NCBI GenBank assembly: GCA_000091205.1
Contig: AP006489.2
From: Cyanidioschyzon merolae
Taxonomy: Eukaryota
Strand: one strand, 5' to 3'
DNA length: 64,000 nt
Under the pieces are notes generated by a model, which was not told where the DNA came from, made no database searches, and saw nothing but the letters and a program-made list of their open reading frames with translations. A program made the translations under genes and the position numbers. Each line of letters begins with the position of its first letter. The first letter of the stretch is position 1. Shown here one piece after another: positions 9,856 through 38,314 of this stretch.

Positions 9856-12492
9856 CTAGAAACGTTCCTGGATAAAGAGGATCGGTTTCTTCGTACCGAG
9901 GCGCTCGGGTTGCCTCTGGACTTTGTGCATGGCCCGTCGAACACTCGCACCAAGGGCTGGATTCCCACAGAAAAAGATGCCTCTTTGTACGTCGTTGGAG
10001 AAGCCAGACACGCGATTGAACTGTTTCACCTGGATAATGTTCCCAAAAAGTCTTTCAAACTCGTACGGATCGCGCAGGTCCAACAAATCCTCGATGAACG
10101 TTTCAAAGCGGGGCCGTCCCTGGTGAAACTGCAGTATCGACTTGGTTGATTGGCCGGCTTCCAGGATGCTCGCAGGAATCTCGCCTCTCGTCAGAAATAT
10201 GTGTACCCGAACGCGCGGAATCAGGTCAGGAGTCCAGGTTTGCGCCAAGTCGAACAGGCCTTGAATACCCCACAGGTCCGCGTATTCGCGCACCACCCAG
10301 ACAAAAGTTAGACTGAACACGTTCGCATACAGACGCTGCTCCTGCTGCTCCTGCTGCTCCTGCTGCTCCTGCTGCTCCTGCTGCTCCTGCTGCTCCTGCT
10401 GCTCCTGCTGCTCCTGCTGCTCCTGCTGCTCCTGCTGCTCCTGCTGCTCCTGCTGCTCCTGCTGCTCCTGCTGCTCTACATGGGAGACCTTATCGTCGGA
10501 TTGGACGCACCGCTGCTGCGCCACAGCTGTCCCAAGACCGTTCCCCCTCCGCGAGAGCAAGGCGCTCGCTTTCCGTCCCAGATGACGCACGCGCCTCAGC
10601 TGGATACGCCACGGCCGCGGCAGATAGAAAATTCTGAGGGTCAGCGCAAACATGATACTTTTGATACAGAAGAGGACGAGGGCGATGATGCGCATCGCAT
10701 TCCCTGCGCCGTCCATATAATGCGACGAGTGTTGTTCGATGCCGAAGAGCGTTGCACCCACGACCAGGTCTGCAACGAGGAGTCCGCAAACACTCAGTGA
10801 TACAAAGCCGCGCGGGGTGCCGACGTAACGCCAGCGAGGCGGATCCAATGTCACCAGCATATCCGACGCAATCGTGAACGAGAAGAGAAAAAGAAGCACT
10901 GCCGAGCTGGTGAAATCCGCAACTAAGGCTACATTGGCATCGAATGCATTTGCGATGACATAAATCGTCAAGCTAATGTACAGCATCCAGAGCAGACTGA
11001 ACAGCCAGAGGCTACTCAATACAAAAGCCCGTAGTCGATCAATTCGCGTTTCCGTTTGGAATATTCCAACGCGCTCTTTCATGTACATCGAAAGGATGCC
11101 AGATTTCCGTATTCGATCCAGCAACTGTGCCGATGTTTCCTGTTTGCTCAGTGTATCGAGAGTCCCGTGCTGCGTTCCGGCCCTGATTCCTCGAATATCA
11201 TCATCGGACGCATCCGCGATGCCGGCCAATTTGGCGGGAGCACGAGCGCTACATATTTCCCGGAGTATGGAGACCATCGGGGTTGCACCAACGCCGCTTC
11301 CGATCAGCAACTGGTAGGGAAAGTGCAGATGGGACTGCGCCGGTGCTCCATACGGGCCTGCCAAGAGCACCCGGTACGCCTCGATTGTCGTCATACATAT
11401 CCGTTCAGGGGCCAAATCGAGGCCGTCCGCCGTTGTTGTCGCTGCTTCTGCCACTGCTGCTTCTGCAAGGCTGTGCAGCCTGCGAGTCCATTTGCCCACT
11501 GCCGCAATGTAGAACGTGATGCGATCCGAGTCGCATGACGGTGCGCTTGCGGCTGTGAACGGATGCCAAGCATCAGCGGGCATACCACACCCTTTGCGCG
11601 TGTCGATGATCATGATCTTGAAATACTGGCCCGGTAGGTAGACCGCGTTCCGTCGTTCAACGGAGAGCTTCACGATATTGGAGTTTGCCTGAGCCAGACT
11701 GAGCACCAGGATGCGCCGAGGAGTTACGGTCGCCCGGGAGAGCTGATACAAGCGGTCGATGATATAGAGGAATACCGGGCCTGCGAAGAAGTACACCGTC
11801 CAGGGCCGGCCGCCTCGCAAGCCGTGAAATACCAGACAGATGTATACCAGGACCGCAATCGGACGGTGCGTCCACCAGAACAGGCGGAACCATTTCCGGC
11901 GTACAGTTTCAACTCCAAAACCGAGCAAAGGAACCAGCAAAACCATGAGCACCACACCTGTGACAAAAAGCATGGTCGCTGGCAGTGCCGCTGGTCCCGT
12001 GAACAAACCGCCACGAAATACGAACACGCTCGCAGCGTAGTTGACGATCTGGGCGATGCCGTGAATCCAGCCGGTTGCGGCAAGTGACGTCCCTACGATG
12101 GTGTGCATGTCGGGTATCCATCGCTCCACACATAGCAGGTCGTAGAGAGGTGTGCGGTACAGAACCGTCGCTAGAGTGCGGTTTATCGTGAGCGGGAGGA
12201 CAAGCGAACAGAATGTGCACGCAAATCCCATGCCCCGTGCGATGGATCCCGCATACCGCAGGATACCACTGGGGCGCAAGTCGACGATAACGTAGCGTAC
12301 CCCGTAAGCAAAGAACCACGACATGGCACAGAAGAACAGGAGAACAATCGAGTACCAAAGCCCGTTTTCAACGAGGTGGATATTCCATATTTGCGTACGT
12401 TCCGTCAGGCTGGGATCGAGATTCGACTCGTTCTGTTTTGCTTTGTTCATCAGTATCGTACGAAAAACGCAGATGGAATAACCACAAGTCAA
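9856..12492 (-). CDS. NADPH oxidase / ferric-reductase family protein (NOX/Rboh-like). A ~330-aa insertion with four predicted TM helices plus a (QEQ)n tract lies inside the NADPH-binding domain.
   Basis: The 878-aa ORF has the ferric-reductase TM domain with His-containing helices. It has the FAD-binding 'HPFTAAS' and the NAD motif 'LLIGSGVGATP'. After the insertion the C-terminal NOX tail is 'FFCGNPALGASVRRA'. The insertion contains 4 hydrophobic helices and the QEQ tract. The reading frame stays open for ~1 kb, so coding is favoured over an intron. Confidence 0.85.
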   Translation of the reverse strand: MTCGYSICVFRTILMNKAKQNESNLDPSLTERTQIWNIHLVENGLWYSIVLLFFCAMSWFFAYGVRYVIVDLRPSGILRYAGSIARGMGFACTFCSLVLPLTINRTLATVLYRTPLYDLLCVERWIPDMHTIVGTSLAATGWIHGIAQIVNYAASVFVFRGGLFTGPAALPATMLFVTGVVLMVLLVPLLGFGVETVRRKWFRLFWWTHRPIAVLVYICLVFHGLRGGRPWTVYFFAGPVFLYIIDRLYQLSRATVTPRRILVLSLAQANSNIVKLSVERRNAVYLPGQYFKIMIIDTRKGCGMPADAWHPFTAASAPSCDSDRITFYIAAVGKWTRRLHSLAEAAVAEAATTTADGLDLAPERICMTTIEAYRVLLAGPYGAPAQSHLHFPYQLLIGSGVGATPMVSILREICSARAPAKLAGIADASDDDIRGIRAGTQHGTLDTLSKQETSAQLLDRIRKSGILSMYMKERVGIFQTETRIDRLRAFVLSSLWLFSLLWMLYISLTIYVIANAFDANVALVADFTSSAVLLFLFSFTIASDMLVTLDPPRWRYVGTPRGFVSLSVCGLLVADLVVGATLFGIEQHSSHYMDGAGNAMRIIALVLFCIKSIMFALTLRIFYLPRPWRIQLRRVRHLGRKASALLSRRGNGLGTAVAQQRCVQSDDKVSHVEQQEQQEQQEQQEQQEQQEQQEQQEQQEQQEQQEQQEQQEQQEQQEQRLYANVFSLTFVWVVREYADLWGIQGLFDLAQTWTPDLIPRVRVHIFLTRGEIPASILEAGQSTKSILQFHQGRPRFETFIEDLLDLRDPYEFERLFGNIIQVKQFNRVSGFSNDVQRGIFFCGNPALGASVRRAMHKVQRQPERLGTKKPILFIQERF
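10335..10476. repeat. In-frame 9-nt microsatellite (CTGCTCCTG)~15.8, encoding (QEQ)n inside the NOX CDS.
   Basis: A perfect 9-bp periodicity is visible over ~142 bp. On the minus strand it translates to QEQQEQQEQ. Confidence 0.9.
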
Positions 12493-15645: not shown

Positions 15646-16646
15646 AACATGCTGCACTGGAATGCCGTTTCATTGATGGGCATATAGAGAGGAGTACTCG
15701 TCGTTCGAACGGAATCGATTATATGACGTGACGAGTTCAATGAACTCTCGGCATGAATTTGTGAACAATTCGCCTGATGACGACGTCGAGTTTTTCCCTT
15801 GCTAACCCGGCGATGATGTTGCCCGCACCTACGTGTTGCCGCGAAGCAGAAACATAGAGAACCTAAAGAATGCGGGAACTGGCATGCCAGCCTGTAGCAA
15901 GAAAGAGACGTCGCGACCTCTACATGTGAATAAGCTACTGGTATCGATCAATTTATGAAACCATGTTTGATAGCGGTGCGAATTATCATGATTCTGATGA
16001 TGGAACGAATGCCAGCGGAAAATTGCCGAGGGAGCCTCTCAGGGAAGGCGATTGGAAACCCAGAAGCTACATAGAAACCGCAAGCCCTCATCGATGCACT
16101 TTGATTGCACGGGCTGTTCATATTCAAACAGCTGCTGAAAATTTGGAAAGAAAGGAGCACGGCGAGCAGCTCACTTGTCCATTTTCATATGACATAGGTG
16201 TATGATCAAAACCCACCACTGAAAGACGAGTGATTCCGTTTCAGGAACCTCGCTCATGCGACCGACGCCAGCAAGCTCGCTCGCCCGAAGGCCAGTCTCG
16301 ATCCGGATGACAGGCGTCTCGAGGCGAACCCAAATTTGGCGACGCCCGCTCGATCCACCAGGGCCGACGTGCACGCATGCTCGCCGCTGCTGTACACGTG
16401 TCCCGCACGAGGTGACGCGAGCCAGGGATCCAATCGCCACGCGCATGCCGCGTAGCACCCGTGGATGCGAGGCCCTGCGCTGCTCCGGTCCCGAGCGGGC
16501 AAAAGATCATGGTATGGCTGCTGCTTGGATACGCGTTGAGCTGTAGCAATATCGTTCCGCTTCTTTCGCTCAAATTTTTCAGGTCTCAACGAAAAAGTCT
16601 TCAGTAGAGCTCCGAAGATAAAACGCCAAATTGCGGAAGCAGTCGT

Positions 16647-17258
16647 ATGTATGCAGGAATGCGTCTTAGAGTTGTCGCATTGCTCTTGATGCTCGTCACA
16701 TATCTGTGCGTTCCGAGTGCTGCGCTCGGTGTTGCCGCTGAGGATACGATTCAGGGCTCGCGTACCGTTCTCCGTGCTGCACCGGGCACAGAGTTTCGGA
16801 TTGGTGGCCCTGTCACGATCCAAAACATGACGATCGCTGCAAACTATCTCGTTGGAATCGAGGTGGCGCCAATGCCCCCGGGCATGCCAGATCCAGCGGC
16901 ACAAAATGTTGTGCATTTGGAGGCTGATGTGCACGCCACATCCACGAATCCCTGGGGATTCCCCAATGGATCCTGGATCCCGTACCTGAGCATTGTCTAC
17001 ACGATCAGCAAAGAGGGATCATCCTGGAGCGCCCGGGGTGTTCTCAGCCCTATGACTGCAGATGATGGCCCGCACTACGCCGACAGTCTGACACTTGCGG
17101 GTCCGGGTCGCTATGCGCTCATATACAAGCTCATTCCACCGCAAGTGAATGGTTTTCTAAGACACGTTGATCACGCGACTGGTGTGCCCGACTGGTGGAC
17201 GCCCTTCGAGGTGCCGTTCAACTTCACGTATCCGGTTGAAACAGCGTCAGCATCTTAA
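16647..17258 (+). CDS. Secreted P19/Ftp-family Fe2+ transport (Fe/Cu-binding) protein homolog, the periplasmic partner of FTR1 permeases in bacteria.
   Basis: The 203-aa ORF starts with a signal peptide, 'MRLRVVALLLMLVTYLCVPSAALG'. The motif 'HLEAD' (H-x-E-x-D) is followed by a Met exactly 46 residues after the His ('SPMTADDGPHY'). A His lies 7 residues after that Met, and a distal 'RHVDH' follows. This reproduces the remembered Cu/Fe ligand spacing of Campylobacter P19 (H42, E44, D46, M88, H95, H132). Confidence 0.75.
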   Translation: MYAGMRLRVVALLLMLVTYLCVPSAALGVAAEDTIQGSRTVLRAAPGTEFRIGGPVTIQNMTIAANYLVGIEVAPMPPGMPDPAAQNVVHLEADVHATSTNPWGFPNGSWIPYLSIVYTISKEGSSWSARGVLSPMTADDGPHYADSLTLAGPGRYALIYKLIPPQVNGFLRHVDHATGVPDWWTPFEVPFNFTYPVETASAS

Positions 17259-23274: not shown

Positions 23275-23946
23275 GTGCGCAGTAAACAGCAGCGACTGGC
23301 AATAAAGGCCGCAGCGTTTCCCACGTCGCACTTTTTGGACACGGGAGCGCACCAGCGACCAAGGCACTCAGCTGCAGGAACGAAGCGGATGCTTCGAGTG
23401 CTTCGCAGGTCTTCGAGTTTCAACCTGGTCGGGCCTTTCCCGGCTGCGATCCGGCCGAGGCTGGGTGTTCGGGAACAGAGCGGCGCGGCCAGTTATGTGG
23501 AAAGCCTCACGCAGCTGGGTCGCAAAGTGACACTGCCCAAGTCACCGTCGGAAGCTGTTCTTGAGAAAGTTGCAAACATGCACGAGAATTACCCTTACGT
23601 GACGCGCTTCACCTGCCCCGAGTTCACGTCGCTCTGTCCTCTTACAGGGCAACCGGACTTTTGTCATATGGTAATAGACTATGTGCCAGACAAGTGGCTC
23701 GTGGAGAGCAAATCGCTAAAGTTGTATTTACATTCGTTTCGTAATCACGGAGACTTCCACGAGGCATGCACTATTGGTATTGCCCGTAGGCTCACGACGG
23801 AACTAGAACCCAAGTGGCTGCGCATCGCGGGCTACTGGTATCCGCGTGGTGGCATTCCAATCGATGTCTTCTACCAGACGGGGGAGCCACCAAAAGGTCT
23901 CTGGATACCCGATACAGGTGTTCAGCCGTATCGCGGTAGAGGCTGA
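23275..23946 (+). CDS. queF: NADPH-dependent 7-cyano-7-deazaguanine (preQ0) reductase, QueF type I, with an ~80-aa N-terminal extension.
   Basis: The match to bacterial QueF is near-verbatim: '[55 protein letters not shown]' then '[12 protein letters not shown]'. The catalytic Cys in CPxTGQPD and the ESKSLKLYL motif are both present. The extension '[26 protein letters not shown]' resembles an organellar targeting peptide. Confidence 0.85.
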
Positions 23947-24900: not shown

Positions 24901-25443
24901 TTAGCTGACAGGCCCGTAGGCGTGATCGAACGATGTCTCGTGATCGTGCTCTATTCGGTGCAGTGAGTCGAGAGGTTTCGGTCGATAGATTGCACGGGCA
25001 GTCGCTGTTTCCTCCACTGTTACAGCAGATAAACAAGGAATAGAAGGTTTCAGCTTCCGATACGCCCAGTACGCAATATACTCAGCAGTTGGCGCGTCTG
25101 TCTCTAAGGTCTCGTTCAAGTGCTGGTGATCAAGAAACTTTTCCACAAGAGGGCGAACGACGGCTGCGATCTCGTCAAAGTCCATGACCATGCCTTTCTT
25201 GGGACCAGAGGTCACCAGCGCCTCCGTCGATACTTCCACAACCAGCACGTACGAGTGACCGTGTAATCGACTGCACTTCGAGTCGTGGTGTTGTAGACAA
25301 TGGGATGCCTCGAAGGGGAACCGCTTCTCCAGAATAAACATGGCTGATGTTGCGTTCACCGCTGACCCAGCAGGCCTCAGAACACTTTCTCGCACCAGCG
25401 GCTGAAGCGCGTTCCCGGTTGACAGGGAAGCAGCGCACGCCAT
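24901..25443 (-). CDS. queD: 6-pyruvoyl-tetrahydropterin synthase / QueD family (COG0720) T-fold enzyme. The functional start is probably the internal Met at ~25341.
   Basis: 'MFILEKRFPFEASHCLQHH...CSRLHGHSYVLVVEV' matches the PTPS/QueD N-terminus (FxFxAAHRL-type) and the C-x3-HGH zinc motif. The convergent queF neighbour argues for a role in 7-deazaguanine synthesis. Confidence 0.8.
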   Translation of the reverse strand: MACAASLSTGNALQPLVRESVLRPAGSAVNATSAMFILEKRFPFEASHCLQHHDSKCSRLHGHSYVLVVEVSTEALVTSGPKKGMVMDFDEIAAVVRPLVEKFLDHQHLNETLETDAPTAEYIAYWAYRKLKPSIPCLSAVTVEETATARAIYRPKPLDSLHRIEHDHETSFDHAYGPVS

Positions 25444-36844: not shown

Positions 36845-38314
36845 TTGAAAAGCCAGAAAGTCCTGCTGCCGACCTGGCCTGGGCTGGGCATCTGCCCGTC
36901 GGCGATTATCCGGACAGCACCGAAAGCGCTCCGCCTGGTTACGCTAACCGAGGTGTTTTTGGGCTTTTCGGTTGCCGCTGAGCGAGGTTCGCCCATAACC
37001 AACCTGCACTGCTGCACCAGTGGCATGCGTCGTCTGGAGCAGAGCGAAGTGCAGGCTAGCACAGGAAGCGATCACGTTTCGCTGGTCTCTTTTCTGGCAC
37101 TGCAAGCACTCCTATACGCTACCGCCCTCAGCGGTGTTCTGGTGCCTTGCTTGGGCAACGACAGCGACACTGAGGTTGGGCAAGTGTCCAGCGCCGCCTG
37201 CGAGGAATTCGGCCCGCAAGCCGACCCCAGACTGAGACTCGCAGTAGCGCGGAGGACGCAGCGGCCCCAAGCGGCTCGGCGTTCGTGGAAACACGTTTTC
37301 GAGGACTGGGGTCGCGGCGTTGCCGCTGGGGTGCTCCTATCCGCAGCGCTGGTGCATATCCTCCCGTCCAGTGCTGTGCAGCTCGAAGATAACCTAGCCA
37401 CTGCGTACGGAATGGAACGCAGCACTGCTGTTTCTCTGTTGGGAACCTGTTTCCTCGTAGGCGTGCTGGGTGTCTACTGCATCGACTTGAGAGCGCGACG
37501 CGCTGCCGACGCACCCAGATTGCCAAGTCCGTTATGCGTAGACGCTCGAGCGCCACATCCTTGGGGCGATTGTTCGCAGCGACCGGCACCATCCGAGCGA
37601 GTGGATTCTGGACATCCGCTTTCCCAGCTCGAAGCACACCCTGCATCGACAAGCGCTGCATTGCAACGTTCACAGCCTGCAACTGCCGAGCACCATCTGC
37701 GGCCAATCTGGAAAATCCTGCTCTGCTCGCTGTCCTTTCACGCCCTATCAGAGGGTATGGCGCTTGGCTTGTCCGTGTATCGCACGTTCGTCGCGATGTA
37801 CCTTGCGATTATTTTGCATAAATTTTTCGCGGGGCTCGCGCTTGGCGTATCGCTTGCCAGCGCAAGAGAGCCAATGGCGCGTTGTCTCAGGGCTGGAGCG
37901 CTTTTCGCAGCGGCAACGCCATGTGCCGCTACCCTAGCGAGGCTGTCAGCGCACTGGAGTCAGTTGGACAGCGCCCGCTCGGGAGGAGCAGTCCGAATCG
38001 TAGGCGGCCTCCTGAATGGAATTGCTGCCGGGAGTTTCCTAGCGATCAGTTTACTCGAAATCATACCTTGTCCGAGGAATTCTGCTGAAGCTAGCCAAGT
38101 GGCGCCATGGATTGGAAAATCGCACGAAAATGCCATGGATTGGTACCGGGGAACGCCCGGCTATGAGACGCTAACGACAGCGGATTCATGTGCAACCCTG
38201 AATGCTGGCGTAGATACGGCTGCAGATCCAATGGCAGCGATGTCGAGTCGACAAACGCTCGTTCCGTTGCTTTTTAGTGCGGCTACATTCTCGCTGCTTG
38301 CGCTGTGGATTTGA
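36845..38314 (+). CDS. ZIP-family zinc/iron transporter. The true start may be a downstream Met.
   Basis: ZIP signature helices are present: 'AGVLLSAALVHILPS' and 'HALSEGMALGLS...ILHKFFAGLALGVSLA' (HxxxE / H-K/R-xxxG-LALG). There are multiple TM segments and a His-containing variable loop. Confidence 0.75.
   Translation: MKSQKVLLPTWPGLGICPSAIIRTAPKALRLVTLTEVFLGFSVAAERGSPITNLHCCTSGMRRLEQSEVQASTGSDHVSLVSFLALQALLYATALSGVLVPCLGNDSDTEVGQVSSAACEEFGPQADPRLRLAVARRTQRPQAARRSWKHVFEDWGRGVAAGVLLSAALVHILPSSAVQLEDNLATAYGMERSTAVSLLGTCFLVGVLGVYCIDLRARRAADAPRLPSPLCVDARAPHPWGDCSQRPAPSERVDSGHPLSQLEAHPASTSAALQRSQPATAEHHLRPIWKILLCSLSFHALSEGMALGLSVYRTFVAMYLAIILHKFFAGLALGVSLASAREPMARCLRAGALFAAATPCAATLARLSAHWSQLDSARSGGAVRIVGGLLNGIAAGSFLAISLLEIIPCPRNSAEASQVAPWIGKSHENAMDWYRGTPGYETLTTADSCATLNAGVDTAADPMAAMSSRQTLVPLLFSAATFSLLALWI

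Follow-up and report, generated by a model that had tools for sequence, protein, structure and literature searches.

The Cyanidioschyzon merolae gene CMG092C encodes a member of the bacterial P19/FtrA family, and the reading of it that we consider probable is that of an exported protein which holds copper, captures Fe(II) and serves FTR permeases encoded at unlinked loci. The gene lies on chromosome 7 of C. merolae 10D, within the 64,000-nucleotide stretch of DNA analyzed here (the window), as a complete, intron-less CDS at 16647..17258 (+) that starts with ATG and encodes 203 aa plus a stop, with an in-frame TAG 14 codons 5′ of the ATG. By exact-sequence look-up its product is identical to BAM79610.1 (XP_005535896.1, UniProt M1V4R2), which carries the public name 'similar to periplasmic protein p19', and a 2025 transcriptome paper treats it as a Tp34-type protein acting with FTR1 and reports that its transcript is detected and goes up under nickel stress (1–3 mM Ni; PMC12112623). 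The family identity is already public, being both annotated and discussed in print, so that by itself this identification adds little; what is added here is evidence that the gene was transferred once, its operon context in bacteria, the loss of this linkage in all three algal lineages, a sequon and charge signature and an estimate of selection.

Two minor features of the locus concern its reading frames. At 16623..16625 C. merolae 10D has ACG where two metagenome variants (L001 and L002) have ATG, which gives the variants a possible start 8 codons earlier and a product of 211 aa (MPNCGSSRMYAG...); the same variants also differ from C. merolae 10D by R8G in the leader. An antisense ORF (16254..16934, –; 226 aa) runs across the upstream region and the 5′ half of P19; nothing supports it, and in sequence this rich in GC it has probably arisen by chance.

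Profile, sequence and structure searches place the protein in the same family. The Pfam profile PF10634 (Iron_transport) matches with 167.3 bits against a cut-off of 21 (E = 3.4e-49), covering residues 48–195 and profile positions 3–148 of 150 (146/150), and a sequence search of the PDB returns E. coli FetP (4.9e-37), C. jejuni P19 (1.9e-33), FtrA (about 1e-32) and Tp34 (about 1e-17). From the Pfam match, the PDB alignments to FetP and P19 (residues 47–196) and Foldseek, the P19/Iron_transport beta-sandwich domain spans residues 47–197 (16785..17237, +). The AlphaFold2 model, built on a 30-sequence alignment, has a mean pLDDT of 77; the 10-residue block means of the beta-sandwich are mostly 79–98, with two lower loop blocks, the core reaches 85–98 and the leader is lower. 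When this model was searched against the PDB with Foldseek, 38 chains were matched at E < 1e-3 and all 38 are P19, FetP, FtrA, Tp34 or HftA structures, with target-normalized TM scores of 0.72–0.84 over the whole set and 0.76 or higher for P19, FetP and FtrA. The ORF, its motifs and its membership of the P19/Ftp family had been put forward in the initial annotation from the letters of the DNA, together with a HMMER search of PF10634 and a structural model as ways of checking them, and all of this has held up: the motifs are present at exact coordinates, the profile match is significant, and the model resembles P19-type structures only. A scan against NCBIfam gave no match; that library is meant for naming prokaryotic proteins and is hence uninformative here.

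The metal site of the bacterial protein can be followed residue by residue into the alga. In the alignment to C. jejuni P19 (3lzl) eight metal-site residues map one-to-one, reproducing the P19 geometry that the initial annotation had recognized from the motif spacing, that is, H90-L-E92-A-D94, M136 at 46 residues after H90, H143 at 7 residues after M136 (MTADDGPHY) and RHVDH at residues 172–176. H90, M136, H143 and H173 align exactly to His42, Met88, His95 and His132, which we take to be the copper ligands on the basis of the published C. jejuni P19 structure and of the titles of PDB variant entries, and these four are invariant across the 30-sequence alignment. The acidic iron/manganese-site set, E49, E92, D94 and D140, aligns to Glu3, Glu44, Asp46 and Asp92 (C. 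jejuni numbering), with the first three invariant and D140 kept in at least 90% of the 30 sequences. At the DNA level the E49 codon is 16791..16793, H90-L-E92-A-D94 is encoded by 16914..16928, M136-T-A-D-D140-G-P-H143 by 17052..17075 and H173, within R172-H173-V-D175-H176, by 17163..17165 (all +). Among the fold matches are the site variants E44Q, M88I and D92H of P19 and E46Q and M90I of FetP, and since these entries are variants at aligned positions, the aligned positions are the metal-site residues that have been studied. The Cyanidium caldarium ortholog (contig L003, 10001..10549) has Gly at the position of D140/Asp92, with ADGGPHY in place of ADDGPHY.

At its N-terminus the protein carries a predicted signal peptide at residues 1–28 (16647..16730, +), with the n-region MYAGMRLR, the core VVALLLMLVTYLCV and the c-region PSAALG. 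This leader contains two Arg, a hydrophobic core at about residues 9–24 and an A-L-G motif before residue 29, from which the cleavage site is predicted by the –3/–1 rule. Hydropathy peaks at 2.8 at residues 7–17 (Kyte–Doolittle, 11-residue), no other hydrophobic segment is present in CMG092C, the AlphaFold2 model places a helix at residues 3–21, and the leader has evolved fast, with a dN of 0.50 against the sister-lineage ortholog versus 0.13 for the mature part. The N-terminal segment is strongly hydrophobic in each of the three algal lineages. Judged by its sequence, then, an export-type hydrophobic leader appears to be present, in line with the eukaryotic-style signal peptide that had been proposed. 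Between the leader and the P19 domain lies a linker of ~18 residues (29–46; 16731..16784, +), delimited by alignment and modeled with a pLDDT of 52–59, which is present in Cyanidioschyzon and the sister lineage and absent from bacteria and from Cyanidium, whose ortholog also lacks two of the sequons described below.

The mature domain has also acquired features that its bacterial relatives largely lack. N-glycosylation sequons (N-X-S/T) number 2–4 per mature domain in the algae (three in C. merolae: N60, N107 and N192) compared to a bacterial mean of 0.29 and a maximum of 2 (n = 117). N60-M-T (16824..16832, +) is alga-specific, being at the same position in Cyanidioschyzon and the sister lineage and in 0/117 bacterial homologs; N107-G-S (16965..16973, +) is likewise alga-specific in the sequon analysis; and N192-F-T (17220..17228, +) is common to all three algal lineages, a sequon being found at this position in 5 of the 117 bacterial homologs. 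Charged residues make up 11% of the Cyanidioschyzon-lineage proteins (versus 18.7 ± 1.4%), the lowest value among 123 sequences. Leader, sequons and low charge agree with a route through the ER and Golgi and with acidic surroundings, an agreement that does not amount to proof.

The setting of the gene is that of an ordinary algal locus. The window has ~55% GC and is intron-poor, and the Pfam scan finds in it eukaryotic genes for TRAPP, glycine-cleavage T protein, Rpn5/PCI, Utp21, FEN1/XPG, emp24, SAP30 and a protein kinase, as well as a ferredoxin-dependent bilin reductase, expected for a phycobilin-making alga. Five more window proteins have identical counterparts in C. merolae 10D (BAM79606, 79607-related, 79609, 79619 and 79620). 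These neighbors, the bilin reductase and the identities confirm the algal host that had been assumed. With a GC of 0.56 and a GC3 of 0.57 CMG092C does not stand out from 17 host genes of the window, whose ranges include both values; on the finished chromosome its flanks are housekeeping genes of eukaryotic type, and the same neighbors recur on independent hot-spring metagenome contigs.

The algal homologs found in the database search fall into only three clusters: C. merolae, including near-identical copies on hot-spring metagenome contigs; a close relative, here called the sister lineage, at 71–74% identity; and Cyanidium caldarium (KAK4537870.1) at 57%. The next matches are hundreds of bacterial proteins with 50–63% identity over the mature domain, with named relatives from Acetobacteraceae, Hyphomicrobiales, Rhodopila, Caulobacteraceae and Geminicoccaceae, and no Galdieria homolog is among the matches listed. 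A neighbor-joining tree was built from 123 sequences, namely 117 bacterial homologs, four algal ones and, as the outgroup, C. jejuni P19 and FetP; it recovers the four algal proteins as a single clade (196/200 bootstraps), sister to the 117 bacterial homologs. Both the closest non-algal relatives and the place of the algal clade beside them agree with the bacterial derivation suggested in the initial annotation. For the mature domain dN/dS against the sister-lineage ortholog is ~0.07, an approximate value since dS is near saturation (~1.8), and CMG092C is under purifying selection. Taken together, the single algal clade, the host-like GC3 and the low dN/dS indicate, on sequence grounds, that the gene entered the Cyanidiales ancestor in one ancient transfer and has long been kept as a functional gene. 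The main text of a survey of horizontal gene transfer in Cyanidiales mentions neither iron nor p19 (PMC6629376), and 'p19' does not occur in the text supplements of the 2023 Cyanidiophyceae genome paper. A 314-aa EukProt model from Cyanidium (P0132) was considered as a possible fusion and rejected, as it is a read-through of the same P19 gene.

In the two closest bacterial loci examined the P19 gene belongs to a compact Cupredoxin_1–FTR1–P19 order, and the initial annotation had pointed out that no FTR1 accompanies the algal gene. For the 64-kb window this stands. A Pfam scan of 20 of the 27 window ORFs of at least 200 aa gives no match to PF03239 (FTR1), where the P19 ORF was scanned separately and the six omitted ORFs overlap larger ORFs; six-frame tblastn of the window with two bacterial FTR1 queries gives E > 2 only, compared to 4e-60 for a bacterial P19 control; and tblastn of the window with two FtrB-like cupredoxins and two FTR1 queries gives nothing better than E = 0.49. 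Nor is FTR1 or FtrB found beside P19 in flanks of up to 10 kb at the two other algal lineages. For the genome as a whole, however, the absence does not hold, as 'iron permease' genes are reported from four C. merolae chromosomes, in subtelomeric blocks that have been duplicated (PMC1955436; PMC9812998), 11 TM segments are predicted in CML004C, which is described as iron-permease-like (PMC11808204), and the literature uses a four-member cmFTR nomenclature, including cmFTR2 (CML004C) and cmFTR4 (CMN003C), in which FTR-family status follows the published name. Operon linkage to FTR1 is a bacterial trait and is not expected in a eukaryote.

The genes nearest to CMG092C encode a GNAT acetyltransferase, a NOX/FRE-superfamily flavocytochrome and Rpn5. 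The flavocytochrome (9856..12450, –; Ferric_reduct, FAD_binding_8 and NAD_binding_6), 4 kb upstream of P19, was considered as a ferric-reductase partner, which is unsupported: its best PDB matches are NOX5, NOX2 and DUOX, its architecture is consistent with red-algal NADPH oxidase, and its adjacency to P19 is not conserved. Red-algal NADPH oxidase has extra transmembrane segments inside the NADPH domain (Herve et al.; PMC5016757), and the flavocytochrome is probably this enzyme and not a dedicated ferric reductase. Inside its large NADPH-domain insert there is an in-frame (EQQ)15 microsatellite at 10342..10476, and the protein has 830 aa in a hot-spring metagenome variant versus 864 aa here.

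In the other lineages the surroundings of the gene differ. The neighbors at the Cyanidium P19 locus are unrelated to those in C. merolae, and on the sister-lineage contigs the P19 gene alone matches the window, with no flanking synteny. In four independent sister-lineage assemblies (L006, L007, L008 and L009; 1..340) the contig breaks off ~1 kb upstream of P19, within a gene for a Hint module of the hedgehog type (Pfam E = 1.8e-20). Since Cyanidioschyzon and Cyanidiococcus carry multiple copies of this family at their subtelomeres, the P19 gene of the sister lineage probably has a subtelomeric position as well. Farther downstream in the C. merolae window a QueF-like gene (23275..23946, +; PF14489, E = 6e-31) and a QueD-like/6-pyruvoyl-tetrahydropterin synthase gene (24901..25443, –; PF01242, E = 5e-33) lie less than 1 kb apart. 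The two form a bacterial-style queuosine/pterin tunnel-fold pairing in a eukaryote and may represent another transferred or organelle-derived pair. At 20 kb downstream from P19 there is a ZIP-family metal transporter (37025..38314, +; BAM79619.1, 'similar to zinc transporter'), with no evidence for a functional link.

A mechanism that would account for these features begins with the ancestor of the Cyanidiales (Cyanidioschyzon, the sister lineage and Cyanidium), which would have gained P19 once, from a bacterium with an alphaproteobacterial-type cupredoxin–FTR1–P19 module of which the P19 gene alone is found at the C. merolae locus. Naturalization would then have given the gene a codon composition like that of its host, and the protein a leader of the eukaryotic ER type, new sequons and a surface depleted of charge. 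This protein would be exported through the secretory pathway, presumably to the extracytoplasmic face of the cell and less likely to an endomembrane lumen, where it would bind one copper via His90, Met136, His143 and His173, and Fe(II) at the adjacent acidic site formed by Glu49, Glu92, Asp94 and Asp140. By analogy to what has been proposed for bacterial P19 and FtrA, the iron would be oxidized, probably first, and/or handed to an FTR1-family permease, for which the unlinked subtelomeric cmFTR genes are the candidate partners. The physiological role would be iron uptake, which suits acidic, Fe(II)-rich hot-spring water.

Work on the bacterial systems lends this scheme some of its steps. Cu2+-FtrA of Rubrivivax can oxidize Fe2+ in vitro and oxidation has been proposed for FtrABCD, which uses Fe2+ and matters at acid pH (PMC11966278). 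More generally, the Ftr systems of bacteria are specific for Fe(II) and matter most when the pH is acid (PMC11966278; PMC6083913), properties that suit a habitat of pH 1–3. Bacterial ftrA is induced by iron depletion and also by Cu/Cd excess (PMC7415376), which the nickel induction of CMG092C, by analogy, appears to parallel.

Four considerations run against a role in FTR-dependent iron uptake: the expression datum is nickel induction alone and not iron limitation; at pH 1.5–2.5 metal binding by His and carboxylate ligands is poor, except in a site of unusual acid stability; acid springs are not short of iron, and selection may therefore have acted on something other than high-affinity uptake; and Cyanidium has the Gly described above at the Asp92-equivalent iron-site position. 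C. merolae has no rigid cell wall, and a soluble secreted P19 could consequently remain at the cell only by way of a membrane partner or an anchor that is not cleaved. The last point, that a wall-less cell cannot keep a soluble periplasm-like protein, together with an external pH near 2 that disfavors His/carboxylate metal sites, leads to a different possibility, namely a true P19 that works without FTR, either as a free ferroxidase or Fe(II) chaperone for ZIP/NRAMP, or within an endomembrane compartment (e.g. the vacuole, with its milder pH). FTR1 and FtrB are indeed unlinked to P19 in all three algal lineages, and the ZIP transporter is 20 kb away. Linkage, however, is not to be expected in eukaryotes, P19 depends on an FTR1-type permease in every studied bacterium (PMC6083913; PMC11966278), several FTR genes are kept in the C. 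merolae genome according to the papers cited above, and the charge-depleted surface fits acid exposure, and we consider an FTR-free P19 unlikely, if still worth keeping in view.

We regard it as quite unlikely that CMG092C is a metal-stress protein, i.e. an extracytoplasmic binder of Cu, Ni or other heavy metals whose task in metal-rich acid springs would be to buffer or sequester toxic cations and not to take part in iron uptake. Here both the copper site and the acidic iron site next to it are strictly conserved, and one site per 17-kDa protein makes a poor sink for millimolar metal. The sole expression evidence, the rise under 1–3 mM Ni, was framed by its authors as 'metal sequestration' (PMC12112623), and a metal-rich habitat, the tight binding of Cu by the P19 family and a crystallized FtrA–Ni complex (7r3s) point the same way, but when Cu/Cd induces ftrA in bacteria this reflects an iron demand that arises secondarily, and the tolerance comes from iron import (PMC7415376). 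That the gene is an artefact, either bacterial contamination or a decaying and functionless relic, might be suspected from best non-algal matches that are all bacterial, and is effectively refuted by the finished chromosome with its eukaryotic flanks and host GC3, by the same arrangement on independent metagenome contigs and orthologs in three algal lineages, and by the low dN/dS, the intact ligands and the detected transcript (PMC12112623).

Compared to the best-known bacterial proteins, C. jejuni P19 (with cFtr1; 3lzl) and E. coli FetP (with FetM; 3nrp), CMG092C is ~40% identical over the 150-residue domain and has the same fold, Cu ligands and acidic iron-site residues as well as, by prediction, an N-terminal export signal. 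In contrast to them it is found in a eukaryote and not in a permease operon, and it has a predicted ER-type leader, an 18-residue linker, three sequons and far fewer Lys, Glu and Asp. The closest sequences, at 50–63% mature-domain identity, belong to the alphaproteobacterial-type cupredoxin–FTR1–P19 modules (FtrA of FtrABC(D) in Brucella, Bordetella and Rubrivivax; 8vv5, 7r4u), acid-associated and Fe(II)-specific systems whose Cu-FtrA is able to oxidize Fe2+ (PMC11966278); unlike in FtrABCD, neither an FtrB-like cupredoxin nor FtrC is next to the algal P19 in the 64-kb window. Treponema pallidum Tp34 and T. denticola HftA share the Pfam family and the fold (E about 1e-17 in the sequence search, 28–31% identity in the fold search) but are more distant spirochaete lipoproteins from another physiological setting. 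The Fre–Fet3/FOX1–Ftr1 uptake of yeast and green algae follows the same logic, pairing an extracytoplasmic copper protein with an FTR1-family permease, and as in such reductive uptake C. merolae has FTR genes, as published, and a NOX/FRE-superfamily gene 4 kb from P19. In contrast to Fet3 and FOX1, however, P19 is a small mononuclear-Cu beta-sandwich that is unrelated to the three-domain multicopper oxidases.

From this comparison we tentatively raise the possibility that in the Cyanidiales P19 replaces Fet3/FOX1 as the copper-dependent FTR partner, giving a chimeric bacterial/eukaryotic uptake system in which a glycosylated, charge-depleted and acid-stable P19 would work at an external pH of ~2, and whose permeases might share the transfer and have later been dispersed and amplified at subtelomeres. 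Whatever its partner, CMG092C is a clean case of one component of a bacterial operon that moved into a eukaryote, was long kept and was apparently refitted for acid and for the secretory pathway. The genetics of C. merolae would allow a direct test of the P19–FTR partnership, which, if true, would constitute a second way, other than through a multicopper oxidase, to drive Ftr1-type iron import in a eukaryote.
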